This document shows, one piece after another, positions 1 to 31,573 of a DNA stretch of 32,000 nt. Source of the stretch: Cupriavidus necator (GTDB taxonomy: Bacteria > Pseudomonadota > Gammaproteobacteria > Burkholderiales > Burkholderiaceae); contig NZ_CP066020.1 in NCBI RefSeq assembly GCF_016127575.1, positions 210,001 through 242,000 of the forward strand, given 5' to 3'. The notes beneath the pieces were generated by a model that was not told the DNA's origin, did not search any database, and was given only the letters and a program-made list of their open reading frames with translations. Each line of letters starts with the position of its first letter. Positions within the stretch are counted from its first letter, which is position 1. The position numbers and the translations under genes were made by a program.

Positions 1-1726
1 TCATACGCGGCCCAGCTCCGTCGATCGTGGCTGCGTATGCAGCGGGGAAGGCGGCCAGCATCGCCAGGTCAAGGTCAAGTGGCCAAGAGAAGAACACCGA
101 GGAAGAGCGCTCTAGGTAGCTCAACCACCCCTCGAGATTGGCTGCGTCAAATGTCTCCATTTCTGCAAGCCGCTTATCGCTGAGATGCGTCCCATCGGAG
201 AGTTCCAGAATTTTTTCGCGAGGAACGCCAAGTGCGAGCATTTGCTGCAAGGCATTCTTGAGTCGGCCATAGCCACCACCGTCGCGACCCAGATCTAGGT
301 CGAGCAGGGTCGCGTAAGGAATGCCCAGGCCATGGAGCAGCCGCCAGAAATGATTAACGTGGCGGCCTCCGAGAGGCACGATCGCAACGAACGACGGGTC
401 GACGAGCAGGTTGAGCGCCTCCGCCAGCCGCGGCAGCACGATACGCTCTGAATCGCCCTCAACCAACAGCACAAAACGCGCAAAGTACAGTTCGGGGAAT
501 GCAAGGAAGGCGTTGCGCACGAACTTGATGGCCTCGACGTCGCTGGTCGGCATCGGGATGGGCAGCACCGTTGACACGCCAGTCGCTTGGTTGCGCCGGC
601 AGTAGCGCACGTCGTCGGGCGGGACGCGCCCCAGCACCGAGGGGGAATGGCTGGACACGATGGCCTGGCCGGCGCCTGTCTCGACGAGCGTGCGGATCTG
701 CTGCAGGATACGCGAGAGGTAGTAGGGCGCCAGGTGGTTCTCGGGCTCCTCGACCGCGAACAAGGTGAGGGCTGGTACGTTGAGTTCCTCGGTCCTGAAT
801 CCCTGGATGCGGCCCGCCACTGCAGCCCGCTCCACGTCGAAGACCGCGGCTGCCAGCGCGAAGTAGAAGAGTGACTGCTGGCCGTCGCTCAGCGCGTCGA
901 GTCCACGGTCTTCTCCGGCCGGTCCGCGCTTGAACATCACGCCGATGCGTGCGACGACTTCCTCGAACCGCCGGCTCATCAGGCTCAGTTCGGGGTTGCA
1001 GTCGATGTCACCGTCGTGCAATTTCTCCCACCGCTTGGATAGCGACTCGCTGATGGCCTGAATGGCGTTCTCGCTTCCAAAGGCATTCAGCAACTGCTCT
1101 GTAGCCGCGTGGACGGTCGCCTGAGTGCCCGCCGACCATTCGATGGCCCTGAGCAGGCGAGCTGCCAACGCCCCCGTCGTGGCTCGGATCTGAGTGCCAG
1201 CGTCGCGGCTGGCCGGTGTGTAGAAGAGCTGGATCAGACCGCGATCTCCCGGGGCTACCGGGGAGGCTTGATCGTCACGTACGACGTCATCAGCTGTGTT
1301 AATCCAGTTCAGGTCCTGACTGACGGCGCCTTCCGCAGTGCCATCGTCGTCCCAGCGTGCGCGAAGCCGCAGGCGGCATAGAGGCGTGCCGCCGGGGCGC
1401 TCGATGCGGACATGGCGAAACACCGGTGCGACCGTGGCAGCGGTCGCGCTGCCGTCCACCAGTTCCGGCAGGCTCAGGCGTACATCGATTGTCAGCGTCC
1501 GCGATTTGAGGCGTTCGGTCTCGGTCGGTGTGACATGAAAATCGGAGGGGACGATCGTGCGCTGAGCGCGCGTCACCCCGAAAAGTCGCATCAGAGCCTG
1601 CAGCACCGCTGTCTTACCTGATGCATTCGGCCCCACGATCGCGGTGAGTCCCTGGCTGAAGGGGATGGCTGTCGGGTTAGGGCCGAAGCAGCGGAAACCG
1701 GCTATCGTGACGCTTTCAATATGCAT
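1..1726 (-). CDS. OLD-family ATP-dependent endonuclease (ABC-type ATPase plus Toprim); its C-terminus runs off the left edge
   Basis: My own minus-strand translation starts at the ATG at 1726-1724: MHIESVTIAGFRCFGPNPTAIPFSQGLTAIVGPNASGKTAVLQALMRLFG, with Walker A GPNASGKT. Around 900-760 it reads LSDGQQS (ABC signature) and LFAVEEPENHLAP (Walker B). Around 470-260 it reads VLLVEGDSERIVLP, PLGGR and LLDLDLGRDGG (Toprim-like acidic motifs). The frame stays open to position 2, which would explain its absence from the ORF track. Confidence 0.85.
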   Translation of the reverse strand, partial: MHIESVTIAGFRCFGPNPTAIPFSQGLTAIVGPNASGKTAVLQALMRLFGVTRAQRTIVPSDFHVTPTETERLKSRTLTIDVRLSLPELVDGSATAATVAPVFRHVRIERPGGTPLCRLRLRARWDDDGTAEGAVSQDLNWINTADDVVRDDQASPVAPGDRGLIQLFYTPASRDAGTQIRATTGALAARLLRAIEWSAGTQATVHAATEQLLNAFGSENAIQAISESLSKRWEKLHDGDIDCNPELSLMSRRFEEVVARIGVMFKRGPAGEDRGLDALSDGQQSLFYFALAAAVFDVERAAVAGRIQGFRTEELNVPALTLFAVEEPENHLAPYYLSRILQQIRTLVETGAGQAIVSSHSPSVLGRVPPDDVRYCRRNQATGVSTVLPIPMPTSDVEAIKFVRNAFLAFPELYFARFVLLVEGDSERIVLPRLAEALNLLVDPSFVAIVPLGGRHVNHFWRLLHGLGIPYATLLDLDLGRDGGGYGRLKNALQQMLALGVPREKILELSDGTHLSDKRLAEMETFDAANLEGWLSYLERSSSVFFSWPLDLDLAMLAAFPAAYAATIDGAGPRM

Positions 1727-2182: not shown

Positions 2183-3391
2183 ATGACACTTAATCCCAAG
2201 CCGACGGAAAGCCAGACATCTCACTTCGAAAGGATCCTGCGAGGGATGAGCTTCATCAAGGATTTGCTAGAGATCATACTGAAGGTCTCGCCGCTCGCAT
2301 TAGTAGCGCCTGCGATGACTGTTTGGCTCTATCTTCGAAAGCTTGGTTGGTCGGAACTCTTCGGTGAGTCAGTTGGGTCACTGCCGGGCCTGCTGGCACT
2401 GCTCGTCGGGTCGATATTAATCTTGATTGTATTCCTCCTCCAGGTTGTCCTGCCCTCAATCTTTTTCGGGGCAGCGGCGGAGGTGCTGGACGATGAGAGA
2501 CCAAATCCTCGTCTTGCGTCGGCCCGGGCGCAACAGCTTCATTTCGTGCCCGTGCTGATGTGGCAACTTTGTTTCAGTGTCTCCGTAGCATATTTTCCGG
2601 ACGCGATCACGTCCCCGTTACAGCTCGCCACTGCCGTTTCGGCGGTAACCGCAGCGGCAATGGCCGCCAAATTCCGTGAGGACCTTCTACCCGCGTCGAC
2701 GAAGCAGCGTATTACCGTAATGCGACAGGGAGGGAACACGGCGTACTATTTGGGCTACTGTGCTCTGCTCATGGGCGTCGGTATTGCCTTTCCCATCGTA
2801 ATCTCTGTTGCTTCGGCTGCTTCGCTGCTATCGCTGTGGTGGTTGACAAAAGATCTGAATATCACCTCTCCTGCGGCCTTTGTGGTTCTATGCTGCGGGG
2901 CAGGAGCCATTAGCGTGGTTCCTGGCTTGGCCTACCTCGGCGCCAAGGTTGAGAGACATCCTCCCCGTAAGCTTTGGTTGCTGACTGCATTGGCTGGCGG
3001 CGGTGTTCTGTATGCAGCGATCGCAACAGCCATGTTCTTTGCGCCAATTTCCAGGCAATCCTTTGAACTTGCCGGCGTCAGCGATACGCAGCCACACGTT
3101 TATCTACTGCAGAATGAGTCGATCCTGCCATCTATAAGAGCAGTTGGGATTCCTACATCATCCACAAAAGAGTTCTTTCCCGATGGGAAGGAGGCCGTAT
3201 TTGTTGGCGCCTATCTTCAGTTCAACTTTGGTGGCGTAAAGTTGCTGTGTCGGTCGCCGTACGACGCTGTCGATCCTGCTGTCTCTATAACAGCTGACGC
3301 GCAACGGGATCTCGGCTCGCGCTCGAACCTGGGCGGCGGATGTTTGCCCGTGAGGCCTGACGATGTGCGCGTTGTCCGGCCACATCGATAG
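2183..3391 (+). CDS. Hypothetical multi-pass membrane protein with a soluble C-terminal domain of roughly 120 aa; start uncertain
   Basis: The ORF is open from 1886 (TTG), with the first ATGs at 2183 (MTLNPK) and 2246 (MSFIKDLL). It has several long hydrophobic stretches (LALVAPAMTVWLYL, LLALLVGSILILIVFLLQVVLPSIFFGAAA, YYLGYCALLMGVGIAFPIVISVASAASLLSLWWL, AAFVVLCCGAGAISVVPGLAYLG, LWLLTALAGGGVLYAAIATAMFFAPI). The region is visibly more A/T-rich than its neighbours. I recognise no family. Confidence 0.55.
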   Translation: MTLNPKPTESQTSHFERILRGMSFIKDLLEIILKVSPLALVAPAMTVWLYLRKLGWSELFGESVGSLPGLLALLVGSILILIVFLLQVVLPSIFFGAAAEVLDDERPNPRLASARAQQLHFVPVLMWQLCFSVSVAYFPDAITSPLQLATAVSAVTAAAMAAKFREDLLPASTKQRITVMRQGGNTAYYLGYCALLMGVGIAFPIVISVASAASLLSLWWLTKDLNITSPAAFVVLCCGAGAISVVPGLAYLGAKVERHPPRKLWLLTALAGGGVLYAAIATAMFFAPISRQSFELAGVSDTQPHVYLLQNESILPSIRAVGIPTSSTKEFFPDGKEAVFVGAYLQFNFGGVKLLCRSPYDAVDPAVSITADAQRDLGSRSNLGGGCLPVRPDDVRVVRPHR

Positions 3392-3591
3392 TCTGCTCTT
3401 CGTCTACGGTGAGATCGCTATGTCCGTGAGATGCTCGTGGGCTTAGCTATATCCTGACCTGTGAGGAAGAGCACTGCGTCCGGGTGTCGTGCTATAGCAT
3501 GAGCCCAGACCACGGATTGAAGGCATGGAACACATCGTAAACTGAAGACTAAGGGGAACTCAGCCAAGCACATCGGGAGCAGAGTCGTCGG

Positions 3592-3885
3592 TTTGCATAA
3601 TTTTGTTCCCGCCCGTCGCCCGCCAGCTCGCCGTTTCCGAGGTGCCAGGAACAATTTTATGCAAAGAAATTTTGCAGAACATTGTTCCTCCGGCCGACGT
3701 TTTGCGTAATTTTGTTCGTTTCCCGGGAGATCGGTCAGTCGCTGCCCAGCCCGCTGCAGCCAGGGCACGCAGGCGGAGGCTGCAAGACGGCCGCCGCGCG
3801 CCAAGCCACCTTCCGCGGCGCTCCCGTCTGGCCCAGAGGGCCAGGAACAAAATTCTGCAACATTCGGGAACAAGATTCTGCAAAC
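3592..3885. repeat. Array of six ~19-bp sites, consensus GGAACAA-W-W-TT-M-TGCAAA, in mixed orientation
   Basis: The copies, read directly from the sequence, are:
- 3592-3610 (minus): GGGAACAAAATTATGCAAA
- 3648-3666 (plus): GGAACAATTTTATGCAAAG
- 3670-3688 (minus): GGAACAATGTTCTGCAAAA
- 3700-3718 (minus): CGAACAAAATTACGCAAAA
- 3844-3861 (plus): GGAACAAAATTCTGCAAC
- 3867-3885 (plus): GGAACAAGATTCTGCAAAC
Copies 2 and 3 together form a 41-bp imperfect palindrome. Confidence 0.8.
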
Positions 3886-3911
3886 GGACGGCCGCGGCCT
3901 TCAGCTTTCCC

Positions 3912-4487
3912 TCAGGCCGCAATGACGTATTGCCAAAGCGCCATTGCGCCAACGTTCACGGCGACAGTGCCCCAGAACGAAACTTGGAACTCCCGTTTCC
4001 GGTTCTTGTGTCGAAGCAGGTGCTGGGCCGCAAGCGCGCCCGGCCAACCGCCGCAGAGCGCCAGTAGGTGCAGGGTGGTCTCAGGCGTGCGCCACGTGTT
4101 TCGGCTGGCCCGCGTCTTGTCGTCTGCGTAAGCGGAGAACGTAATGATGCTGGCCAGGAGGCTGACAATGCCGGCCTGTCGAGGGAAATAACCAACCAGG
4201 GCGCCGCCGACGATGAACCCCAAGGCCGCCAGACCTGCGAGCACCGGCAAAGGGCTCGCGTCTGACCGCGACTTCGGTGCACCGACGATTGCAACGTTCA
4301 GGGCTTGAATCCGGCCGTCCTTCCCTTTGCCAAGCTCGAAGCTCACGCGGTCACCAGGTGTCGGCGTCACGGCGCGTGTTTGTAGCGCTGTGACGTGAAA
4401 GAAGACATCCTTCATGTCCGCGTAGACGTCGATAAAGCCAAAGCCCTTGTCTGCATGCCACGTCTTGACCTGACCTGCTTTTTTCAT
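3912..4487 (-). CDS. Cold-shock domain plus DUF1294 membrane-domain protein
   Basis: The N-terminus MKKAGQVKTWHADKGFGFIDV...DVFFHVTAL is a classic CSD (KGFGFI, VFFH). The C-terminal half has hydrophobic helices and the LLALCGGWPGALAAQHLLRHKNRK stretch typical of DUF1294 as I recall it. Confidence 0.85.
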   Translation of the reverse strand: MKKAGQVKTWHADKGFGFIDVYADMKDVFFHVTALQTRAVTPTPGDRVSFELGKGKDGRIQALNVAIVGAPKSRSDASPLPVLAGLAALGFIVGGALVGYFPRQAGIVSLLASIITFSAYADDKTRASRNTWRTPETTLHLLALCGGWPGALAAQHLLRHKNRKREFQVSFWGTVAVNVGAMALWQYVIAA

Positions 4488-8236: not shown

Positions 8237-8472
8237 GGCCTCCCGGCCAGAGTACGGCGGTAGACATTCGGGGCCGCGTCGCTTCGGCAGCCCGACGACT
8301 TAGGTATCAAAGTGGAGGGCGGTGCGCCATGATCGATTCTGCCTCGATCACGAAGCGCCCCGCGTGAACGCAGCCAAATTTGAACATGACGCCCGTACTG
8401 AGTAATTTTGCCAGTAGCAGGGGGGTTATGTGGAATGGGGAGGGTGAGACGTCGGTCGGCGCCACCGGCACC

Positions 8473-8721
8473 TCAGTCGGCCGTCGAAGCGCAGGCGCTC
8501 GAAACGGCAGCAAAGTCGAAATGCGCGGCGGCATAGATGGCATTGCAAGCCCAGACTTCTTCGCCATCCTTGTAGAAGATGACCCATTTGCCGTCGCTGA
8601 CGCAGTGGGCGCCAGGAAACACTTCGTCATGGCCATTCGGTCCGTCCAGCGGAAAGGACGCGTGGGGTGTGGCCCAGTAGCGGCCCTTCGGTAGGGGCTC
8701 GATCGTCTTTGGCATGCTCAT
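8473..8721 (-). CDS. Small hypothetical protein (weak call)
   Basis: The internal ATG at 8721 gives MSMPKTIEPLPKGRYWATPHASFPLDGPNGHDEVFPGAHCVSDGKWVIFYKDGEEVWACNAIY. Composition is plausible, but there is no clear RBS and no recognised family. Confidence 0.3.
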   Translation of the reverse strand: MSMPKTIEPLPKGRYWATPHASFPLDGPNGHDEVFPGAHCVSDGKWVIFYKDGEEVWACNAIYAAAHFDFAAVSSACASTAD

Positions 8722-8854
8722 CAGGCCCAGTGAGGTGTTACACAAGACACCATCGCCCAGTGAAGGCGAAACGGGGGATGGTGTCACCCTGCAACAGCGA
8801 AGACCGTCCTTCGTGTAGGCTTCACCATCCAATCACCTGTTGCTACCCGTTGCG

Positions 8855-9142
8855 ATGTCGATGGCACGATACCTCTTGTTTGTGGCCCGCGCCCTCGGCG
8901 TAGGCGCCCTGATCATGATCGTCGCCATCGTCTCCCGGCAAGTATATTTGCGCAGCGCTGCGGAGGCTGCTGACGCCGGCGCAGACGAGGAGTCTGCGGA
9001 GGCTGCCGACGCCGGCGCAGACGAGGAGCCTGCGACAATGATGTTGATACGCTGCGAGACGATGCACGAACGTCTGCAGAACCGGCACAGCTCGGCTGCG
9101 AAGGCTGACGAGCGGCCACGCGCTCGTTGCAGGGAGTCCTGA
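8855..9142 (+). CDS. Small hypothetical protein with an N-terminal hydrophobic helix and a duplicated acidic 12-aa unit (weak call)
   Basis: MSMARYLLFVARALGVGALIMIVAIV is followed by AEAADAGADEES and AEAADAGADEEP, encoded by the 36-bp tandem repeat. Confidence 0.3.
   Translation: MSMARYLLFVARALGVGALIMIVAIVSRQVYLRSAAEAADAGADEESAEAADAGADEEPATMMLIRCETMHERLQNRHSSAAKADERPRARCRES
8959..9030. repeat. 2 x 36-bp tandem direct repeat
   Basis: TGCGGAGGCTGCTGACGCCGGCGCAGACGAGGAGTC at 8959-8994 is followed by TGCGGAGGCTGCCGACGCCGGCGCAGACGAGGAGCC at 8995-9030 (2 mismatches). A third unit begins with tgcga at 9031. Confidence 0.85.
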
Positions 9143-9217
9143 CTTCGGAGAACTTCCGATTAGTCGACCAGGAGCTAGGCCGCACGCCTGGTAGGCGACA
9201 GCGGCGAATGAGCCGCG

Positions 9218-9257
9218 CACAATCAATACTTTCATGATCATGAAAGTATTGATTGTG
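9218..9257. repeat. 40-bp perfect, loopless, A/T-rich palindrome
   Basis: CACAATCAATACTTTCATGA|TCATGAAAGTATTGATTGTG. The two halves are exact reverse complements. It is intergenic, downstream of the UPF0158 gene. Confidence 0.9.
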
Positions 9258-9495
9258 ACGATGGGCCCCGCGGACGGCTATGCTCGTCATCGCTAGCCGA
9301 CCCACAGCGGATCGTGGTTCAAGCGCAAGAAAATCGGCCACGTTCGGGGGAGCCGCCACTCGAACGTTCCGCATAAAGCCGTGGGCCAACGTCAGTATAT
9401 GGCCGATCTGCCAGGCAATCTGTCTGTCACGGCGGTGCCTGAATTCCCAGAGGACCACCCTTTACCGCCAGACATTGCGGCATGTCTATCCGGCG

Positions 9496-10159: not shown

Positions 10160-11182
10160 TTAGCGGGACGTCCCCTTCACCGGTCGAGTACTGACGCGCT
10201 TCCTTGTTGCAGCCTCGTTCTGCGTTGCAGGCGGGGTCGCCACGTTTGCTTTACCGGCAACAACGTTGCCAGATGCTGATTTGCGTGGCCCTGCGGATGC
10301 CTTGACTGATGACTTCTTGGTTACCGACTTATTATCCTCCGCAGTCTTCGCATTCGCAGGTGGCTTACGGGTTGTCGAGACGGCCGACTTGGTCGCCTTC
10401 TTCGCTGTCACCTTACCTGCCGGTGGCTTGTTAAGTCTGACAGCAGGCTTCGGCGGTGGGTTAGCGTCGGCCATCTCGATGCCAAACACGTCGGCCACCA
10501 GGGCGTCGTCGAGCACCTTGCTGGTGGCGGGTCGTTTTGTCGATTTGGGCAGGCCAGCGCCGGCCTGCCTGACGAGATCATTGGCATCGACGCGGCGCAG
10601 GGCGAAGAGCAATTCCGGCTGTTGGTCGAGCCGCGCGCCGATGCCGTAAAGTACGGCAGCAACGTGCTTGCACATTGACGCCCAGTCCGGACAACTGCAA
10701 CTGAACCTGATGTCTTCCGGCATCGGGAAAAGACCGCTGCGAGGTTTGCAGATGCGCTCCATCACGGCTGTCGAGAGCTTGCCCTGCAAGAGTTCCACGA
10801 TCGAATCGATCGATTCCGCGCAATCGGCGCCGATCGCTCGCCATTGCTTTGCGGGACATGCCGTCACGGTCACAGCGACCGTGTACAGACTCGAACCCAT
10901 TACCTGCGCGCGGACTTCGCCTGCCGTAATCTGAAGGTCGATCACGGAACCGTTGCGCACATAGGTACGGCCGCGCGGCAGGCGGTTGGCATAGTCGCTG
11001 TAGCTTTCCAGATTGTCGCACCAGGCCTTGCCCCAGAAGGTCTTGGCGATGGCACCGCGGTATGAGGCGATTGGCGACAGCACCGAACCAGCCTTCTTCG
11101 CCTTCTCGGCGGCTCGTTCAGCCTTCTTTCTGCGCTCGGCGACTGAGACATAGGGCTTCCATCCCCCGTAACCGTAACCCAT
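10160..11182 (-). CDS. SWIM zinc-finger protein (SNF2-helicase partner) with a Lys/Ala/Pro/Thr-rich basic C-terminal tail
   Basis: The N-terminus is WKPYVSVAERRKKAERAAEKAKKAG...FWGKAWCDNLE...RLPRGRTYVRNGSV. The SWIM motif is FSCSCPDWASMCKHVAAVLY. The last ~115 aa (about 10160-10505) are a low-complexity basic tail (KVTAKKATKSAVSTTRKPPANAKTAEDNKSVTKKSSVKAS...). An AAGAGGAA RBS lies 18 nt after the helicase stop. Confidence 0.85.
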   Translation of the reverse strand: MGYGYGGWKPYVSVAERRKKAERAAEKAKKAGSVLSPIASYRGAIAKTFWGKAWCDNLESYSDYANRLPRGRTYVRNGSVIDLQITAGEVRAQVMGSSLYTVAVTVTACPAKQWRAIGADCAESIDSIVELLQGKLSTAVMERICKPRSGLFPMPEDIRFSCSCPDWASMCKHVAAVLYGIGARLDQQPELLFALRRVDANDLVRQAGAGLPKSTKRPATSKVLDDALVADVFGIEMADANPPPKPAVRLNKPPAGKVTAKKATKSAVSTTRKPPANAKTAEDNKSVTKKSSVKASAGPRKSASGNVVAGKANVATPPATQNEAATRKRVSTRPVKGTSR

Positions 11183-11200
11183 TCCGGTTCCTCTTGACGA

Positions 11201-13900
11201 TCAGTTTTCTTGCGCGGCATGAACGTCGAGCTTCACGAGATCGAGCAATTCACGATTGCTCATCTCGGTAAGCAGGAGTTCTGCGCCGCCTTCCAACACA
11301 TCCTTCACCAATTGCTGCTTCGCTTCGATCAACTGGTCGATACGGTCCTCGACCGTGCCACGGCAGATAAACTTATGCACCAGGACGTTCCTCCGCTGGC
11401 CGATACGAAATGCACGATCAGTCGCCTGGTTTTCCACCGCCGGGTTCCACCAGCGGTCGTAGTGGATCACATGCGACGCGGCGGTGAGATTCAGACCTGC
11501 CCCACCGGCCTTGAGCGAGAGCACGAAGAAGGGGGTCAGCTCATCTTCCTGGAATCGCTTGACCAGTTCGCGGCGCTTGGCGACCGGGGTGCCGCCATGA
11601 AGCACCAGACCTTCGCGGCCAAAGATCGAACCTAGAAAAGCCGCCAGCGGCTCAGTGGTCTCGCGGAACTGGGTGAATACCAGCACCTTTTCCTGTTTGG
11701 CGGCAATGACTTCGGCCAGTTGGCGCAGGCGGGCGAACTTGCCACTGTCTTCCGCCTTCCAGGCGGCGTCGCCCAACCACTGCGACGGATGATTGCATAT
11801 CTGTTTGAAGCGCATCAGGTAGCTCAGCACGACACCCTTGCGACCGATGCCGTCGGCATCTTCAAGCGCGGCAGCCAGATCCTTCACCGCACGCTGATAC
11901 AGTGCCGCCTGGCTCGGGCTCAGGTGGCACCAGGCCTTGAGCTCGGTCTTGTCCGGAAGGTCGTCGATTATCCGCTTGTCGGTCTTCAGGCGGCGCAGGA
12001 TGTAGGGCCGTACGAGCGTTCGCAGCGGACCGAAGTGCTCGGCCTTCGCCAGCCGCCTGGTAAAGTCGGCAAAGACTTTGTCTGAGCCCAGCAATCCGGG
12101 GTGGGTGAAATCGAAGATGGACCACAGATCGGACAGGCGGTTTTCCACGGGAGTGCCGGTCAGCGCGATGCGCGATTGTGCCTGGAGCTGCTTGACCTGT
12201 CGCGTTTGCTTGGCGCCCGGATTTTTTATCGCCTGTGCTTCGTCGACAATGGCAACGCGCCATTGGAAGGCTCCCAGTACCGGCTGGCGAAGAAGCGCGC
12301 CAAAGCTGGTGATGACGAGATCGATGTCCGCAAGTCGCGCCGGGTCCAGCGCACGCAATTCGGCCGTCGGCATGGCCGACGGATGGGCGATCAGTAGGCG
12401 CAAGCCGGGGGCAAAGCGCTCAGCCTCTGCCGCCCAGTTGGCCAGCAGCGATGCAGGGGCGACCAGCAGACTGGGCCGCGCCTCGGCACTTTCTCGCTTC
12501 AGCACGAGCAGAAGCGAGAGTACCTGCATGGTCTTGCCCAGGCCCATATCATCCGCCAGGCAAGCGCCCAAACCGAGCCGGGTGAGCAGGTACAACCACC
12601 GCACGCCGGCCTGTTGGTAGGGCCGCAGGGTGGCCTTCAGTTCCGGTCCCGGGCTGATCTGCGCCAACCCCTCTGGCTGACGCAACTCCTGCAGGGTGTC
12701 AGCCAGCCAGGGCCCTGCAACAAGCTGCGACCAGTCGCGGTCAGCGGGGTCGGCACTATCGTCGAGCGAAACCCCCGCCAGAAGGCGTAGAGCCTCATTA
12801 AGCGGCAGACCGCTTCGCGCCGCCTTTTCCATGGCCTCGAATCGCTTCATGAGACGACTGAGCTTTTTCTTGTCCACCTCGACCCAGCGACCACGGATGA
12901 GCTGCAAGCCGTCGGCGCCTTTGAGCAGATTCCTGACCTCGGTGGCGCTGAGACACTCGCCATCGAGCGAAACCTCCATGCTAAAGTCCAGCAACGCGTC
13001 TTTGCCCAAGAGCGAGGGTGGCCGTGCTCCGACACTGGCTTTCACAACGGGACGAGCAGGGCGGCCCGCCTGCCAGACGCCTGGCATGCGTACGACAATC
13101 CCGGCAGCTTCGAGTTTGGACAGGTCCGAGAGAAGGCGATGGGCATCGAGCGGCGTCCAGCGCAGCGGATGGTATATCTCGCCGGTATCCACCATTTCGC
13201 GAAGCCAGTCGCAGTGTTCCGCGGCGCGCTGCACCGGCAGCAGTAATGACAGGAGCTGCGCCTTGCTCCTGACTCCCGAGAATTCCGCCAGGGCCTGCGA
13301 CAGTGGCTGATGTTGCGCTTTACCATGGGCCGACAGACGCGACGTGTAAGTCGCAAGGAAGGCGAACGGTGACTCCGGGTCCTTGCGGTTCTCAGCAAGG
13401 TTGAAATGCACGCGGCCGACGAGATTCCAGGCCGGGTGACGCAGCTTGAGGAAATCCTGAAGCGAGACGTTTGCGGTCGCCAGTTCCTGGTGCAAGGCAG
13501 TATCGATCTCGCCCCACAACGTGCCCAGCACGGCTGGCGTCAGATACTCGCCGCCCGTCATCGGCGGTGCATCGTCAATCATGGCATCGAAATCCTTGGC
13601 AGCAGGCGTTGCGACCGCGATCTCGCCGCCTTCGGGCGTGGCGCACAAGGCAGTGACATAGCGCGCCGCAAAATCACGCCACCAGGCCCATGCAGGGGGC
13701 AAAATGCGGCCGATTTCGGCCGTTCCCAGGTGCAGCAGGCCATGTCCCGCGCCAAGCGCAAAAGAACTCTCAAGCCGCTGTCGCGTTTCATCTGCCAAGA
13801 TTGGCGCGGCGTCCTCCGGCACTGCAAGCAGGTGCCCGCCGGGCGTCAGGTGTGGCACAAGAATGTCGGGCGCAGTCACAGGTGCCCGTTCCAATCGCAC
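11201..13900 (-). CDS. SNF2-family DEAD/DEAH helicase (HelZ/YwqA-like, with an SNF2-associated N-terminal region)
   Basis: LRPYQQAGVRWL...LADDMGLGKT (motif I), AIVDEAQAIKN (DEAQ box), LTGTPVENRL, and the C-terminal helicase block GGAGLNLTAASHVIHYDRWWNPAVENQATDRAFRIGQ. The start is a GTG at 13900 and is uncertain. Confidence 0.9.
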   Translation of the reverse strand: MRLERAPVTAPDILVPHLTPGGHLLAVPEDAAPILADETRQRLESSFALGAGHGLLHLGTAEIGRILPPAWAWWRDFAARYVTALCATPEGGEIAVATPAAKDFDAMIDDAPPMTGGEYLTPAVLGTLWGEIDTALHQELATANVSLQDFLKLRHPAWNLVGRVHFNLAENRKDPESPFAFLATYTSRLSAHGKAQHQPLSQALAEFSGVRSKAQLLSLLLPVQRAAEHCDWLREMVDTGEIYHPLRWTPLDAHRLLSDLSKLEAAGIVVRMPGVWQAGRPARPVVKASVGARPPSLLGKDALLDFSMEVSLDGECLSATEVRNLLKGADGLQLIRGRWVEVDKKKLSRLMKRFEAMEKAARSGLPLNEALRLLAGVSLDDSADPADRDWSQLVAGPWLADTLQELRQPEGLAQISPGPELKATLRPYQQAGVRWLYLLTRLGLGACLADDMGLGKTMQVLSLLLVLKRESAEARPSLLVAPASLLANWAAEAERFAPGLRLLIAHPSAMPTAELRALDPARLADIDLVITSFGALLRQPVLGAFQWRVAIVDEAQAIKNPGAKQTRQVKQLQAQSRIALTGTPVENRLSDLWSIFDFTHPGLLGSDKVFADFTRRLAKAEHFGPLRTLVRPYILRRLKTDKRIIDDLPDKTELKAWCHLSPSQAALYQRAVKDLAAALEDADGIGRKGVVLSYLMRFKQICNHPSQWLGDAAWKAEDSGKFARLRQLAEVIAAKQEKVLVFTQFRETTEPLAAFLGSIFGREGLVLHGGTPVAKRRELVKRFQEDELTPFFVLSLKAGGAGLNLTAASHVIHYDRWWNPAVENQATDRAFRIGQRRNVLVHKFICRGTVEDRIDQLIEAKQQLVKDVLEGGAELLLTEMSNRELLDLVKLDVHAAQEN

Positions 13901-15151: not shown

Positions 15152-15239
15152 GGGCCGGACGCCGTGTTGGTTGCAGGCAGCGGACTCATAATCCGCCGGA
15201 GACATCCCACCGTGGGTTCGAATCCCACCCGGCCCACCA
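15152..15239 (+). tRNA. Class-II-type (long variable arm) tRNA with anticodon CAU; CCA encoded
   Basis: My manual fold of the 88 nt is:
- Acceptor stem GGGCCGG/CCGGCCC (7 bp).
- A8 C9.
- D-stem GCC/GGC (3 bp).
- D-loop GTGTTGGTTGCA, which contains the GG.
- A26.
- Anticodon stem GCGGA/TCCGC.
- Anticodon loop C-T-CAT-A-A.
- 15-nt variable region CGGAGACATCCCACC (GGA/TCC mini-stem).
- T-arm GTGGG-TTCGAAT-CCCAC.
- Discriminator A, then CCA. Confidence 0.75.
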
Positions 15240-19617: not shown

Positions 19618-20556
19618 TTACCGCGTACGGATGTAGGCCTCGAAGAGACCCGCGTGCAGGCCGCGTAAGTCCTTTCGCCGTTCCAGCAAATCATGCTGGC
19701 GGCCCTGGCGCTCAAGGTTCAACAACTCCAGCATGATCCGCAATCCCTTTTCGGGTAATGTGCCCGTCGAGGGCTCGGACGCGCGTAAGAGGGCAGCAAG
19801 TCCGGGTTTTTCGGTCAAGGACCAGGCTGGGAGCCACGCGAGATCATCTAGCGTACCGTCACCATCGAATTTCGCATCGAACCGCCGGCGCAGCGCCAGC
19901 AATGACGAATCACCGAGCGTTTGTATGAGCGCGCCGAGCTTCTTCGGGGATAGCCAAGCAAGCTCGGCCAAGAGCGGCCATGCCGGGTCAAGCCCCTGTA
20001 GCCGGTAGACCGTCTCGGCCATCCAGGCGAGGGGAGTTGGAATTCGTCGCCATGACCCAATTCGCTTGATGCTGTCAGATGCTGCAGTCCACTCCGCAGC
20101 GCGCATCCATAGGGGTGCCGCATGCCATTCGGGCATCTCCCGGTGAAACGGCAATTGAGAGGCGGCTCGGGCAACAGCACGCCACAGCGGTAGGCACCAA
20201 GCCATGCCCGCTGCGTCGCCGAATGCTCGGCGCGCTGCCGGCATGCACGGCAAACACCACCCTTCGCAGGTGTCGCGCAGTGCCGTCTGAGTCGCGAAGT
20301 GTTCGTGGACGGGAGCCTCCAGCACACAGACAAGTGTCTCCAGGGTCGGCACAAGCGTGTCGTCCGGATATTCCGCGACCAGGCGCTGCAGTGCTTCACG
20401 CCCGGCGGCGGCATTGCGTTGCTCAAGCGCTGTGAGCACGTCGTTGCGAAGCATGACATCGCGGCCATCTTCAAAAAGATCGAGCTGATTCGTCACGGCG
20501 TTCCCGTTGGTAGTCAGATTGCGCCCCTGCAGGACCGGCCCGACATCGCCGGGCAC
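19618..20556 (-). CDS. Conserved hypothetical protein (312 aa); start uncertain (GTG at 20556)
   Basis: This is a long ORF with protein-like composition: LDLFEDGRDVMLRNDVLTALEQRNAAAGREALQRLVAEYPDD...WLSPKKLGALIQTLGDSSLLALRRRF. It recalls conserved hypotheticals of beta-proteobacteria. No domain assigned. Confidence 0.6.
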   Translation of the reverse strand: MPGDVGPVLQGRNLTTNGNAVTNQLDLFEDGRDVMLRNDVLTALEQRNAAAGREALQRLVAEYPDDTLVPTLETLVCVLEAPVHEHFATQTALRDTCEGWCLPCMPAARRAFGDAAGMAWCLPLWRAVARAASQLPFHREMPEWHAAPLWMRAAEWTAASDSIKRIGSWRRIPTPLAWMAETVYRLQGLDPAWPLLAELAWLSPKKLGALIQTLGDSSLLALRRRFDAKFDGDGTLDDLAWLPAWSLTEKPGLAALLRASEPSTGTLPEKGLRIMLELLNLERQGRQHDLLERRKDLRGLHAGLFEAYIRTR

Positions 20557-26129: not shown

Positions 26130-29100
26130 TCAGGTTCCTGTCCGAATGCGGGACCGGGATTTTGTCGTCGCGGCGACGGCCGGTGCCGCCGGGATCGGCT
26201 CAAAAAGGGCCTCGATGTCTTCGGCGGAGAATTTGACGGCGCCGGCGGCATCCTCCGACAGGATCGCCTCGGCCAGCGCGGCTTTCTGCGCTTGCATCGC
26301 GACGATTTTCTCCTCGACACTGCCACCGGTGATCAGCTTGTAGACGAACACGGGCTTATCCTGGCCAAGGCGGTGTGCGCGGTCAGTAGCCTGATTTTCC
26401 ACAGCAGGATTCCACCAGGGATCGTAGTGAATGACAGTGTCGGCCGCTGTCAGGTTCAGGCCAACGCCACCGGCCTTCAAGCTGATCAGGAAAAGCGGTA
26501 CCTCGCCTTGCTGGAAGCGTTCGACCGGGGTGATGCGGTCCGTGGTATCCCCGGTCAGCATGACGTAGGGAATGCCGGCGTTTCGCAGGGCTGCCGCAAT
26601 GAGATCCAGCATGCTAGTGAACTGCGAGAACAGCAGGATCCGACGGCCTTCCTCGATAAGTTCGGGCAGCATGTGCAGCAACAGGTCAAGCTTTGCCGAC
26701 TCCTTGATCCGGGCCGCCTCTTTGATCTTGACGAGCCGCGGATCGCAGCAGACCTGGCGCAGTTTGAGCAACGCCTCCAGCACGATGATGTGGCTGCGCG
26801 CGAGGCCCTTGGCAGCGACGGCCGCCCGCACCTTTTCCTGCATGGCAGCGCGCACTGTTTCGTACAGATCGCGTTGTGCGCCTTCGAGTTCCACCGTGCG
26901 CACGATCGTCGTCTTCGGGGGCAGCTCGGTGGCCACCTCATCCTTGCGCCGGCGCAGCATGAATGGCCGGATGCGCCGCGCGAGCAGGTCGCGTCGAACG
27001 GCATCGCCGCCCTTTTCGATGGGAGTGCGCCAGCGTCGCGTGAAGTCCTGGCGGGTACCGAGAAAGCCGGGCAGCAGGAAGTCAAACTGCGCCCACAATT
27101 CACCGAGATGGTTTTCGAGCGGCGTGCCTGTCAGGCAGAGGCGGTGTCGCGCACGCAGTGTTCGGATGGTTGCGGCGGACTTGGTGGCGGCATTCTTGAC
27201 GTATTGGGCCTCATCCAGAAGCAGCAGGTGATAGTCGTGGCCGGCAAGGATTGCCTCGTCACGCCACAGCAAGGCGTATGTGGTCAGGATCAGGTCGTGC
27301 TCGCCGATCTGGTCAAAGCGATCGTGACGCTGGGGGCCGTGCAGATCCAGCACGCGCAGCGTCGGCGTGAAGCGCTGGGCTTCCTCGCGCCAGTTGTGCA
27401 CGAGGGTCGTCGGCACGACGATCAGCGCAGGCCGGTCCAGCCGGCCCCGTTCCTTTTCCGTGAGGACGTGCGCAAGGGCCTGGATCGTCTTGCCCAGTCC
27501 CATGTCGTCGGCCAGTACCCCGGACAACCCGTGCTCGCGCAGGAACTGCATCCAGGCGAGCCCCTGGCGCTGGTAAGCACGCAGTTCGGCCGTCAGGCCG
27601 CGCGGCACGGGCACGTCTGCCATCCCGGGACCCGCCATCAGCCGCTGCGCGAGCTGCCGGATCGATGCCGCGCCGTCAAACTGCCAGCGCCCGGTCTGAT
27701 CCAGGGCATGGAGCCGGGCTGCATCCCACTCGGAAATGCGCATGCCGGTGTTGAGCGCGTCGAACAGGTCGATCAGCACGCGCACGACGGGTTTCAGCCG
27801 GTCGGCACCCAGGCGCAGCCGCTCGTTGCGCTCGGTCTTCAGATCAATCGCTTCGTCGTCGGGGATGCCATCCAGCCTGCCTGACAACCAGCGCGAATCC
27901 CGGCGAAAGAGGTCAGCCAGCAGCGGCTCCAGACGCACCGTACGGCCGTTGACAGTGATGCCCATCTCGACGTCGAACCAGCCATCACCGGTCTGACGCA
28001 GGCGGCCGTCAATGGCCTCGATCTCAATCACATTGTGCCGAAACGCGTCCGTCATGACGACGCGCCAGCCACTTGCGCGAAGGATCGGAAGCAGCACCTT
28101 CACGAGGCTTGGCCAGCTGGCATGGTCCTCGGGGCCGAGCATGTCGGCCGGAAACGGGGCTGGCCCAAAGACATGGTCGGCCCGAATCTTCCGGAACCCG
28201 GCCTGTTGCAGTTCTGTCAGACGCTTGCGCTCGAGATCGGCGTCCCGTTTGATCTGGACGACCTCGCCACCGGTGGTTTGAAGGAGAGTGGTGCTGCTGT
28301 GCGCCGGGAGGCTGTGTCCTGCGTAATCAAAGCTGACCGTCGCAAAATCCTGCGCCGAGGCCCATGTCGACAACGTGTCCAGGGCCAGGACGGGCACCGG
28401 CGCGCAGTGGATGCTTCGCACCGACGCCGTTTCATGCGCAGGCGGCATCGGGAGTTCGGGCGCCACGTCACGCAGCACATTCCCAACCAGTGCGGCCTCG
28501 TCCAGCGTAATGGCCGGCATGGACAGGAAATCGGCGAGCTGTTCGGAGGGCCAAGGCATCGCCAGGATGCCGGCTTCACCAGCATCCGCGTCGACGTACC
28601 AGCACGGCTGGGTGCTCGTCAGCAACAGGGAAGCGGGTGGTTCGGCTTGCAGAAGCGGCCGCACGCGCGTGTCGGGCTGCGCCTGCCAAGTCAGTTGCGC
28701 GCCGCGCGCGGCTCCGACTTGCAGCGCACAGTGCGTGCCGGGATAGTGTGAGCCCGCGGGCGAAAAGGAAACAAAAGCCCGTCCGGTTGCCATCAGTTGC
28801 TCCAAGATGACGGCACCGGTTGCGCCCCGCAGGCCAAAACCACCCATATAGGAGGCATGTGAGCGGCCCAGCCATAGCCCGCGCAGGATCGGCAGATCCG
28901 CTTCGGTAACAAATTTGGGGGGTTCGACCAGCGCCTTCTCGATGTTTTGCCACGGATCGTCAAGCGAGCGAATCGTGCCGTCGGCGCCAACGCGTGCCTT
29001 GTAAATCGTTACCTCGCCGCCGCGGTACGATTGGCCGATCACGTAGGCTAGGGCATGCGTGGGCTTGGACGGCTTTTTCTTGGCCGCGGGATTGGCGGCC

Positions 29101-29486
29101 GTGCGCCTGGCACGAAAGCCTTCAAGCCAGCTCACCAGTTCCGCGCGCACGCCGGTGGACGGTGGCTTCGGCTGGTGCGCCAGGCCGGCGATCAGCAGCG
29201 CTGCCACATGCTTGCAGTCGACCCCAACTGGACACGTGCATTCGCCTTCCACCCACATGTCGTCGTCGACGTCGTGGAAATACACACGCACGTCATACGG
29301 ACGCGTGCGGGTGCCTTGCACCAGGCCCGCCAGGGTGTCCTCGTCGATCCAGCGCAACTCCGAGACGGCACTCGCATAGGGACGCGCCTTGGACACCGTG
29401 AACGGATCCAGCCATTGCGCGATTTGCCTGGATTGGTAGGGGACAGACATTGACTGAAGGAGGCCGGTGGACAACGTCGGGAGCAT
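26130..29486 (-). CDS. Fused SWIM zinc finger plus SNF2-family helicase (1118 aa)
   Basis: The N-terminal SWIM motif is VEGECTCPVGVDCKHVAALL. Helicase motifs are LRAYQRQGLAWM, LADDMGLGKT, LLLDEAQYVKN, LTGTPLENHL and GGVGLNLTAADTVIHYDPWWNPAVENQATDRAHRLGQ. Confidence 0.9.
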   Translation of the reverse strand: MLPTLSTGLLQSMSVPYQSRQIAQWLDPFTVSKARPYASAVSELRWIDEDTLAGLVQGTRTRPYDVRVYFHDVDDDMWVEGECTCPVGVDCKHVAALLIAGLAHQPKPPSTGVRAELVSWLEGFRARRTAANPAAKKKPSKPTHALAYVIGQSYRGGEVTIYKARVGADGTIRSLDDPWQNIEKALVEPPKFVTEADLPILRGLWLGRSHASYMGGFGLRGATGAVILEQLMATGRAFVSFSPAGSHYPGTHCALQVGAARGAQLTWQAQPDTRVRPLLQAEPPASLLLTSTQPCWYVDADAGEAGILAMPWPSEQLADFLSMPAITLDEAALVGNVLRDVAPELPMPPAHETASVRSIHCAPVPVLALDTLSTWASAQDFATVSFDYAGHSLPAHSSTTLLQTTGGEVVQIKRDADLERKRLTELQQAGFRKIRADHVFGPAPFPADMLGPEDHASWPSLVKVLLPILRASGWRVVMTDAFRHNVIEIEAIDGRLRQTGDGWFDVEMGITVNGRTVRLEPLLADLFRRDSRWLSGRLDGIPDDEAIDLKTERNERLRLGADRLKPVVRVLIDLFDALNTGMRISEWDAARLHALDQTGRWQFDGAASIRQLAQRLMAGPGMADVPVPRGLTAELRAYQRQGLAWMQFLREHGLSGVLADDMGLGKTIQALAHVLTEKERGRLDRPALIVVPTTLVHNWREEAQRFTPTLRVLDLHGPQRHDRFDQIGEHDLILTTYALLWRDEAILAGHDYHLLLLDEAQYVKNAATKSAATIRTLRARHRLCLTGTPLENHLGELWAQFDFLLPGFLGTRQDFTRRWRTPIEKGGDAVRRDLLARRIRPFMLRRRKDEVATELPPKTTIVRTVELEGAQRDLYETVRAAMQEKVRAAVAAKGLARSHIIVLEALLKLRQVCCDPRLVKIKEAARIKESAKLDLLLHMLPELIEEGRRILLFSQFTSMLDLIAAALRNAGIPYVMLTGDTTDRITPVERFQQGEVPLFLISLKAGGVGLNLTAADTVIHYDPWWNPAVENQATDRAHRLGQDKPVFVYKLITGGSVEEKIVAMQAQKAALAEAILSEDAAGAVKFSAEDIEALFEPIPAAPAVAATTKSRSRIRTGT

Positions 29487-30564: not shown

Positions 30565-31241
30565 TTGCCGCGAGGACGAGGCGATCATCAAGGCAGCCAT
30601 CGACGCCGGCCAGGAAAAAGGCATTCAGCAGCCAGGCCGATCTGCGCAAGCTGATTGGTGTCGACCTGGCGTAATGAACTGGAACAGCACGGAAAAACGG
30701 AAGGATGGTGCTGACGTTGAAAGATGGAGAACCGCAACCGGCGATGGACGTTAGATGACATGTCGCCGCTGCGACCGGGCATCCACGTGTGGGCCATGGA
30801 TGCAAAGCCCGCTATGCCCGGGAAGACGCGGCTGGTTGAAGAGTTTCGTTCTCGGCAATTATTTCTCTTGCGGCGTTTCGCGAATCCTTTTGCGGAGACG
30901 ATGAGACAGATCTTGGATCCTGGCGTGTCGGCGTTGCGTAGTCTCCTGCGCTGGGAAACAATCGGTTGGAGGAAGTGCTGGGGCCAACAACGTGGATATC
31001 CGCTTTAATCGCAACCTAAGCGCTGGCTCCGCGCGCGTAACTCGCCACGTCATCTTGACCCCTGCAATAGTGGCTGATCTGGTCAGTCCGCGGCTCGGCT
31101 CGCTGCGGCTTTGAACGCCGAGGACTGTCGCCGTCAGGCGCGCCGCGTGCGCCTCCGCGCGATCACGGGCGAAGCTGGAGGGGCTGCTGCCACGCGCCCG
31201 CCCGCCTCGCCGCGGCCTCCTTGTTCTAGCCCATGGGGCCA

Positions 31242-31260
31242 GGAACAAATTCTGCAAAAA
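31242..31260 (+). repeat. Seventh copy of the GGAACAA..TGCAAA site
   Basis: GGAACAAATTCTGCAAAAA has the same 5-prime context (GGCCAGGAACAA) as the copy at 3844. Confidence 0.7.
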
Positions 31261-31381
31261 CCGAACGCGGTGCAGCAGCTTGTGGAGCGCCGCCTTGCGC
31301 TTTGCGATGGGCCAGTCGCGGATGTGGCCCGCACAGTTCCGCAACATGAAGGCAATTTAGGGCGCACGGTGGATTCTCTCC

Positions 31382-31408
31382 AATTGTCTACGCAGGGCGT
31401 AGACAATT
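31382..31408. promoter_or_regulatory. 12-bp perfect inverted repeat AATTGTCTACGC-agg-GCGTAGACAATT upstream of the recombinase-like gene
   Basis: Read directly from the sequence. A third half-site-like ACAATGTCTA follows at 31415-31424. The second arm runs into ACAATTCTGC, which resembles the core of the GGAACAA..TGCAAA site. Confidence 0.6.
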
Positions 31409-31573
31409 CTGCGTACAATGTCTAAATGTGACTTATATTTAACATAATGATTGTTATGCGCGCTGTTGGTATGTCCTGAAGTGTTGCGTGTGGGACGGCA
31501 CGGAGGCTTCAAGTACCGCAACGGAAAAGTGCTTTTATGGTATCTTTCGCCGTTGCGTTTTGTTGTGGGTTTT

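Follow-up and report, generated by a model that had tools for sequence, protein, structure and literature searches.

A six-site repeat array on megaplasmid pHG1 of Cupriavidus necator is very probably a miniature derivative of a three-gene Tn7/Mu-type transposon

A cluster of six short repeats lies in an intergenic gap of a 32-kb window (the whole stretch of DNA analysed here) from the megaplasmid pHG1 of Cupriavidus necator. We consider it very probable that this array is a 305-bp non-autonomous derivative, similar to a miniature inverted-repeat transposable element (MITE), of a compact transposon of the Tn7/Tn5053/Mu kind that lacks TnsA. The six repeats are most likely its putative transposase-binding sites. 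As a gene-less miniature that keeps both ends of a three-gene transposon, the array is a mobile-DNA relic of an ordinary kind. In this way an odd repeat cluster on the megaplasmid of a well-studied industrial strain is explained as a pair of transposon ends, and a widespread Burkholderiales transposon family is exposed, whose transposase is annotated as "hypothetical" and which is barely annotated as a family. In the literature searched no description of this element in pHG1 was found.

Results

Window positions 3392-3911 are 100% identical to NC_005241.1 182248-182767 (megaplasmid pHG1, C. necator H16), and the window therefore corresponds to pHG1 178857-210856. A preliminary description, made from the sequence of the window, had reported six repeat copies in mixed orientation, a near-palindrome at 3648-3688 and convergent genes at both sides of the array, all of which could be confirmed. 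The pattern GGAACAANNTTNTGCAA with up to two mismatches occurs six times in the window, always inside 3593-3883 and in the orientations -,+,-,-,+,+, compared to 0.18 matches expected by chance; none of 100 shuffled sequences reached six. A site weight matrix trained on 68 sites from related elements assigned 23-32 bits to the six array sites and 9.2 bits to the next best position of the window. A further degenerate copy proposed at about 31400 is therefore unsupported; no score there exceeds 8 bits. The near-palindrome is formed by sites 2 and 3, with 89% complementary arms (3647-3665 and 3671-3689) and a gap of 5 nt. The array is located between a hypothetical gene with its 3' end at 3391 and a minus-strand gene with CSD and DUF1294 domains that ends at 3912. 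Open reading frames (ORFs) across the 305-bp unit are mechanical ones only, and an Rfam search gave no family matching the array region, the sole hit being a tRNA at 15152. The coordinates of all features are collected in Table 1.

Table 1. Positions of the mini-element, its parts and the related features in the window
Feature	Position	Strand	Remarks
Complete non-autonomous mini-transposon (left end, spacer, right end)	3586-3890	+	Bounded by inverted repeats CGTCGGTTTGCATAATTTTGTTCC / GGAACAAGATTCTGCAAACGGACG
Left end, ~160 bp, sites 1-4	3586-3745	+	Collinear with left ends of pBB2, pHG1, R. pickettii, B. cenocepacia and Burkholderiaceae bacterium 16
Site 1, left-end terminal site	3593-3609	-	GGAACAAAATTATGCAA; begins 8 bp from the tip, likewise in 12 of 12 mini-elements
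Site 2	3648-3664	+	GGAACAATTTTATGCAA; near-palindrome partner of site 3
Site 3	3672-3688	-	GGAACAATGTTCTGCAA; near-palindrome partner of site 2
Site 4	3702-3718	-	CGAACAAAATTACGCAA; 2 mismatches; weakest site in all relatives as well
Internal spacer, G+C-rich, variable in length	3746-3825	.	pHG1 lacks ~70 bp present in other copies
Right end, ~65 bp, sites 5-6	3826-3890	+	Common to the pBB2 and pHG1 autonomous elements
Site 5	3844-3860	+	GGAACAAAATTCTGCAA; pattern and weight matrix
Site 6, right-end terminal site	3867-3883	+	GGAACAAGATTCTGCAA; pattern and weight matrix
Decayed right half of a second mini-element	31058-31285	+	Spacer and damaged site 5; site 6 destroyed; left end gone
Att-like target motif of the family	31438-31447	+	TTTAACATAA; ~150 bp from the relic

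When the gap was compared to plasmid sequences by BLAST, only query positions 195-500 (window 3586-3891) found matches, which were located in C. oxalaticus (two replicons), C. taiwanensis, Cupriavidus sp. USMAA2-4 and C. campinensis, and for the left part only in B. cenocepacia. Similarity between the replicons begins at CGTCGGTTTGCA and ends at TGCAAACCGACG, which constitute a 24-26-bp inverted repeat. The homology with seven replicons starts and stops at these inverted repeats, and outside them every replicon has unrelated sequence. A genome scan with the site 2/3 palindrome pattern, which covered one genome per species and those copies that retain this part of the left end in little-diverged form, detected 14 further loci in Cupriavidus, Ralstonia, Pandoraea and another Burkholderiaceae. 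The same unit, with the same site order and spacing and with unrelated flanks, is present at no fewer than 12 other loci of Cupriavidus and Ralstonia. This recurrence of the array as a discrete unit on many replicons speaks against the earlier suggestion of two abutting elements. In 12 mini-elements the distances of the sites from the tips are constant (left tip: 8, 63, 87 and 117 bp; right tip: ~47 and ~24 bp), and the total length of 305-380 bp varies through the G+C-rich spacer. Across species the site positions are conserved at 70-90% identity, while the spacer is variable. The elements reside on megaplasmids and chromids, with two or three copies in some genomes and certain copies in tandem.

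BLAST matches confined to the right end led to plasmid pBB2 of C. necator N-1. Here, a four-site left end (tip at 15228) is followed by tightly packed genes for proteins of 681, 326 and 480 aa, referred to as A, B and C, and by a two-site right end (tip at 20061). The resulting autonomous element of ~4.8 kb thus has the order left end, gene A, gene B, gene C, right end. Transposons of this size and gene content also lie between the same two ends in B. cenocepacia, in R. pickettii and in pHG1 itself, and gene A follows the left end in B. cenocepacia, on R. pickettii chromosome 3 and in Burkholderiaceae bacterium 16. Mini-elements and autonomous elements are collinear over ~160 bp of the left end, which carries four sites (-,+,-,-), and over ~65 bp of the right end with its two sites (+,+). 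Since these ends bracket the A-B-C genes in the autonomous elements, the window array is a gene-less derivative that has retained both of them. Among the three genes between the ends in pBB2 and pHG1 none encodes TnsA and no TnsA-like Pfam hit was obtained; a resolvase or recombinase gene or a res site is also missing between these ends.

The autonomous copy of pHG1 is located at ~92.8-98.9 kb and encodes proteins that are 94-98% identical. Its gene A is split after codon 9 by ISAe1 (ISL3-like), which generated the 8-bp duplication ACAATTCC. The insertion (L028 3700-5010, corresponding to pHG1 ~93040-94350) is outside the window, and RefSeq annotates the disrupted gene as a shortened "hypothetical protein". 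On pBB2 a second element directly follows the first one (L026 20067-25217). Both are 80-95% related, and the second has variant sites GGAACAAAATTAGTTTCA in place of ...TGCAA. Between the two the transposase is 81% identical and the TniQ-like protein 95% identical. From these sequences it appears that transposase and end sequence may co-vary between neighbouring pBB2 elements.

An AlphaFold model of protein A (43 homologues) retrieved 21 PDB matches with E≤0.001 in a fold search, all of them TnsB or MuA. Values ranged from E 6e-15 to 1e-7 for TnsB (8rdu, 8ea3, 7svw, 7pik and 9bw1; ShCAST and E. coli Tn7) and MuA (4fcy and 1bcm), at a sequence identity to TnsB of 13-15%. A few members of the protein A family have weak rve or rve_3 hits, and remote relatives with ~30% identity carry a DDE integrase annotation. 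Protein A is predicted from its modelled fold to be a DDE transposase of the TnsB/MuA type and the cognate enzyme of the array, encoded elsewhere than in the window. Homologues are numerous: of 8000 scored candidates at least 575 reach E≤1e-5, and a precomputed Pfam domain is absent from all 120 that were listed. The gene for protein B starts within 3 nt after gene A, and the protein contains an AAA_22 domain (E 1.7e-8 and 4.7e-10). For protein C, Pfam TniQ is matched by 9 of 29 family members (best E 2.8e-6), a PF06527 match is precomputed for one hit, and the pHG1 protein is named TnsD-C-terminal-domain-containing by one source; the pBB2 protein matches Pfam TniQ only with E=0.003, short of the Pfam cut-off. 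We regard protein C as TniQ-like, i.e. as a remote TniQ relative and not as a proven TniQ. A search of NCBIfam gave no hit for A, B or C.

Most insertion sites of the family have a motif in common, TTTRACATAA (≤2 mismatches). It is found 30-37 bp outside the right tip and in constant orientation in 12 of 15 independent right flanks and in none of 14 left flanks, with a background of 0.05 per 100 bp and an expectation of 0.03 per 32 kb. The family thus inserts in one orientation at a fixed distance from a recognised sequence; the window copy is without the motif. Since C. necator C39 p1 contains an instance of the motif free of any element, it is a property of the target site rather than of the element. 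Of 15 elements inspected for 5 bp on each side, one is flanked by an exact pair: CCGGG surrounds a mini-unit (L012) in the R. pickettii plasmid, which adjoins the right end of another relic. A search for direct repeats, as the preliminary description had advised, hence gave a result at this mini-element and none at the window copy. The spacers at junctions between a right end and a left end measure 5 bp in five of six cases, from five different genomes, and 1 bp in the sixth.

Two insertion sites recur. One is situated between the gene for a 386-aa tyrosine recombinase and a kfrA-like/H-NS gene pair and is occupied by the autonomous copies in pHG1 and pBB2 and by mini-units in six other genomes. 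The other lies upstream of the gene for a 405-aa recombinase, where the R. pickettii plasmid has an intact mini-unit and pHG1 a relic. Repeated use of one motif site accounts for tandem arrays with 5-bp junctions. Palindromes overlap or adjoin TTTRACATAA at window 31388-31408 and in the right flanks of L009, L026 (pBB2) and L028 (pHG1), for example TGTCTACGC-AGG-GCGTAGACA and TAGACATAAG-N4-CTTATGTCTA. These palindromes resemble operators or promoters of the recombinase and kfrA-like genes that lie downstream.

The relic in pHG1 includes the seventh repeat copy of the preliminary description. This copy does exist at 31242, but is 1 bp shorter than reported: positions 31242-31257 read GGAACAA-A-TTCTGCAA and represent site 5 with a 1-bp deletion. 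Window 3790-3860 and 31186-31257 share 77% identity (E=6e-7), and the right half of full-length modules aligns with 31076-31263. The R. pickettii plasmid contains an intact mini-element at the equivalent site, upstream of a recombinase gene with 94% identity and with the same motif 37 bp from its intact right end. The 31242 copy is a decayed relic of an independent mini-element and not a partner border of the array. The gene at the right edge of the window was correctly recognised as a recombinase; it encodes a tyrosine recombinase of 405 aa and is followed by a second recombinase gene (510 aa). When both recombinases and the three downstream ORFs were compared to the module loci by tblastn, none was found adjoining the first six plasmid modules, and in a wider comparison the same recombinase stood beside a module in the R. 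pickettii plasmid only. The tandem recombinase genes and the three small ORFs, which are annotated without function, extend over pHG1 210430-214877 (L011 2431-6878, from window 31574). This stretch is 94% conserved in the R. pickettii plasmid and may be a separate mobile module with two recombinases.

An empty-site search in PLSDB yielded no plasmid that shares the left flank of the window copy. Plasmids of C. taiwanensis and C. necator C39 contain its right flank, joined to other sequences on the left. In the C. taiwanensis plasmid the end of the homologous CSD gene is preceded by a degenerate right end, with the motif at +30 and with 77 bp that are missing in pHG1. This comparison suggests that a deletion may have occurred in pHG1 beside the window copy, which would fit replicative transposition without TnsA.

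Discussion

The interpretation of the array as a mini-element of a TnsA-less transposon has to be weighed against several observations that do not favour it. The model of protein A is of moderate quality only (pLDDT, the predicted local distance difference test, 73.5; pTM, the predicted template modelling score, 0.55), and the protein itself has neither a Pfam hit nor a PDB sequence hit. Proteins B and C are also without PDB sequence hits, which for B means none to TnsC, TniB or MuB, and a fold search with the confident model of protein C (pLDDT 85) gave no significant PDB match, neither to TniQ nor to TnsD. Neither a target duplication (left AGAGT, right GCCGC) nor TTTRACATAA accompanies the window copy, and an intact duplication is missing in most other copies too. 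The element tips end with ...ACG-3', while Mu and Tn7 usually have ...CA-3'. In the autonomous elements compared, no visible source of the G+C-rich mini-element spacer was recognised. Finally, we infer from related systems, and do not observe, that protein A binds the sites and that members of the family move.

The preliminary description had considered the array to be a binding region of a recombinase or transposase, either an att or res site or ends of the Tn7/Mu type. The latter option is favoured by our data, whereas the former is contradicted. An att, res or resolution site with arm and core positions for a tyrosine recombinase, such as the right-edge pair, and with the 3648-3688 palindrome as crossover core, is very unlikely. 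It would agree with the inverted-repeat, core-like geometry of sites 2 and 3, with the 22 tyrosine recombinases reported for pHG1 (PMC3414803), and with the tyrosine recombinase genes whose 5' ends adjoin the relic and both autonomous copies (pHG1 and pBB2). However, no homologue of the right-edge recombinases was present within 6 kb of a module in the other plasmids, the recombinases beside different copies are mutually unrelated (E=0.55), and none adjoins the elements of B. cenocepacia and R. pickettii chromosome 3. The adjacent recombinase, with which binding assays had been advised, has no homologue beside most copies and does not qualify as the enzyme of the array. Moreover, the homology breaks at the outer tips, where transposon ends would have it, instead of at the palindrome, and the same arrays bracket the operon of the transposase with predicted TnsB fold. 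We see equally little likelihood that the left end at 3586 and the right end of the relic at ~31285 are the borders of a single cargo transposon or island of ~27.7 kb. Both ends stand in the correct mutual orientation and the interval is rich in toxin-antitoxin and nuclease genes, a type of cargo reported for Tn7-like elements (PMC8649781). Yet in the array an intact right end follows the left end after only 300 bp, an arrangement repeated in 12 other mini-elements, and such a complete pair of ends without cargo between them speaks against the bounded 27.4-kb island suggested before. The relic, in turn, has the spacer of a mini-element, a damaged site 5 and no site 6; the R. pickettii plasmid mini-element in front of the same recombinase has a different left flank; the CSD-Mrr genes of C. 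taiwanensis lie beside a separate degenerate right end, 30 kb from the intact module; and pieces of the interval are scattered among other plasmids. The supposed 27-kb island with recombinase borders is thereby removed as a false lead.

Clustered 17-19-bp repeats are also typical of origin iterons and partition centromeres, and a GG-N-GC spacing resembles sigma-54 promoters, with GG-N10-GC in the 31242 copy. That the sites serve as iterons, a centromere, sigma-54-like promoters or operators of a transcription-factor regulon is nevertheless extremely unlikely. The scattering over promoters of unrelated genes that a regulon would show was not found in the 32-kb window, which, promoters included, contains no further site. 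The array itself is placed between two 3' ends, none of the loci has a rep or par gene as neighbour, several copies occur per genome, also on chromids and sometimes in tandem, and the region has no Rfam match. Two specific candidates were rejected as well. With GG-N11-GC, the spacing in all six sites exceeds that of a sigma-54 promoter by one base, and the sites point in both directions; only the decayed 31242 copy is spaced correctly. A LexA box of the alphaproteobacterial type or another operator does not agree with the lack of other sites in the window, and the host is a betaproteobacterium. Also very unlikely is a former mini-transposon that is now kept for a plasmid function, e.g. as a hotspot of rearrangement or cointegration between replicons. 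The conserved site positions next to a variable spacer, the shuffled flanks without duplications and the occurrence on megaplasmids and chromids would be consistent with this. Site conservation is, however, equally expected for recently mobile elements, no evidence of a selected function was found, and relics such as 31058-31285 decay.

Arrays of ~20-bp subterminal repeats at both ends are a hallmark of Tn7, Tn5090, Tn5053 and Tn552 (PMC8649781), and Tn5053/Tn402 have ~25-bp terminal inverted repeats with repeated transposase-binding sequences at both ends (Kamali-Moghaddam and Sundstrom 2001, cited in PMC8649781). With Tn7 and Tn7-like elements, including the type V-K CRISPR-associated transposons (CAST), which are devoid of TnsA, the family shares the predicted TnsB fold, an adjacent AAA+ ATPase and a protein of the TniQ kind. 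It further shares asymmetric ~20-bp subterminal site arrays, inverted between left and right, whose terminal member is placed a few bp inside the tip, as well as a 5-bp duplication, oriented insertion at a fixed distance with the right end proximal to the target, and tandem accumulation at one site. The agreement in ATPase, TniQ and target duplication is partial. In contrast to Tn7 proper, which has TnsA, the element has no gene for this protein. It carries four sites on the left and two on the right instead of three and four, its tips are CGT...ACG and not TGT...ACA, it contains no CRISPR module, and its presumed target is a 10-bp promoter-like motif instead of a conserved gene end.

Tn5053/Tn402 (Tn5090; tniA-tniB-tniQ-tniR), known as "res-site hunters", resemble the family in their three-gene core of DDE transposase, ATPase and TniQ without TnsA and in the 5-bp target duplication, and several of the copies studied here stand beside recombinase genes. 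Tn5053/Tn402 have two binding sites at one end and four at the other. They differ by an internal resolvase gene tniR and a res site, both of which are missing here, and neither ends nor proteins are detectably related by sequence. The recombinases neighbouring our elements are of the tyrosine type, belong to different families and lie outside the element. With phage Mu (ends L1-L3 and R1-R3) the family has in common a predicted catalytic core fold like that of MuA (4fcy and 1bcm, E 1e-9 to 1e-7), multiple transposase sites per end, an AAA+ partner and, probably, replicative transposition when no second nuclease is available; unlike Mu, the element is small, is not a phage and has no transpositional enhancer. 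The mini-units themselves are comparable to MITEs and to mini-Tn7 laboratory constructs. They are short (305-380 bp), non-coding and present in multiple copies in varied contexts, and they carry the ends of an autonomous relative, which for the window copy is located within pHG1 itself. In contrast to typical MITEs they have six putative internal binding sites instead of simple terminal inverted repeats, intact duplications are rare, and the family seems to be site-specific and not dispersed.

By analogy with Tn7, Tn5053 and Mu we propose that protomers of transposase A would bind the six asymmetric sites, with the terminal sites positioning cleavage at the tips, and that the paired ends would be cut and joined at CGTCGG...CCGACG. 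ATPase B and the TniQ-like protein C would couple the paired ends to the target defined by the motif. Insertion may proceed with the right end first, ~35 bp from TTTRACATAA, and joining across a 5-bp stagger would yield the 5-bp target duplication. Without TnsA, transposition is probably replicative, and cointegrates and shuffling of flanks would be likely. Replicative transposition in the absence of TnsA would explain the scarcity of intact duplications and the shuffled flanks. Mini-elements could be mobilised in trans by the transposase of an autonomous copy. The window copy in pHG1 is probably immobile now, since it has neither target motif nor duplication and the only transposase gene of pHG1 is split by ISAe1.

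Whether the family represents an undescribed, very compact branch of the Tn7 superfamily is a more tentative proposal, to which we give somewhat less than an even chance. Such a branch would comprise three genes on ~4.8 kb without TnsA or resolvase, a transposase not visible to Pfam and a TniQ-like protein that reads TTTRACATAA and places the right end ~35 bp from this 10-bp promoter-like motif. The re-use of sites would then imply weak or absent target immunity, and the natural mini-elements of 300-380 bp would define minimal functional ends of ~160 bp (left) and ~65 bp (right). If active, a small three-gene system without TnsA but with natural minimal ends and an apparently short sequence-specific target would be of interest for the study and engineering of targeted insertion of the Tn7 type. 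The elements probably also contribute to the mosaic rearrangement of megaplasmids and chromids in Cupriavidus and Ralstonia.

Other features of the window were noted in passing. The tRNA detected by Rfam is a plasmid-borne tRNA-Met (CAT) at 15152-15239 (+); its length of 85-88 nt compared to a 71-position model implies an insertion or a long arm. At the left edge (window 1-1726, minus strand, running on leftwards; pHG1 176708-180582) a gene for an OLD-family AAA+/TOPRIM ATPase adjoins a gene for a UvrD-like helicase, a pair that resembles a defence system of the Gabija type. SNF2-family helicases are encoded at two separate loci, 10160-13900 (-) and 26130-29486 (-), together with SWIM zinc-finger proteins or domains, and a homologue of the second locus is found ~1.5 kb from the left end of the autonomous element on R. 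pickettii chromosome 3. Finally, the stretch 8379-9274, which contains small ORFs, recurs at 72-84% identity near mini-elements in plasmids of C. taiwanensis and C. oxalaticus, sometimes twice per locus, and may be another repeated or mobile unit.

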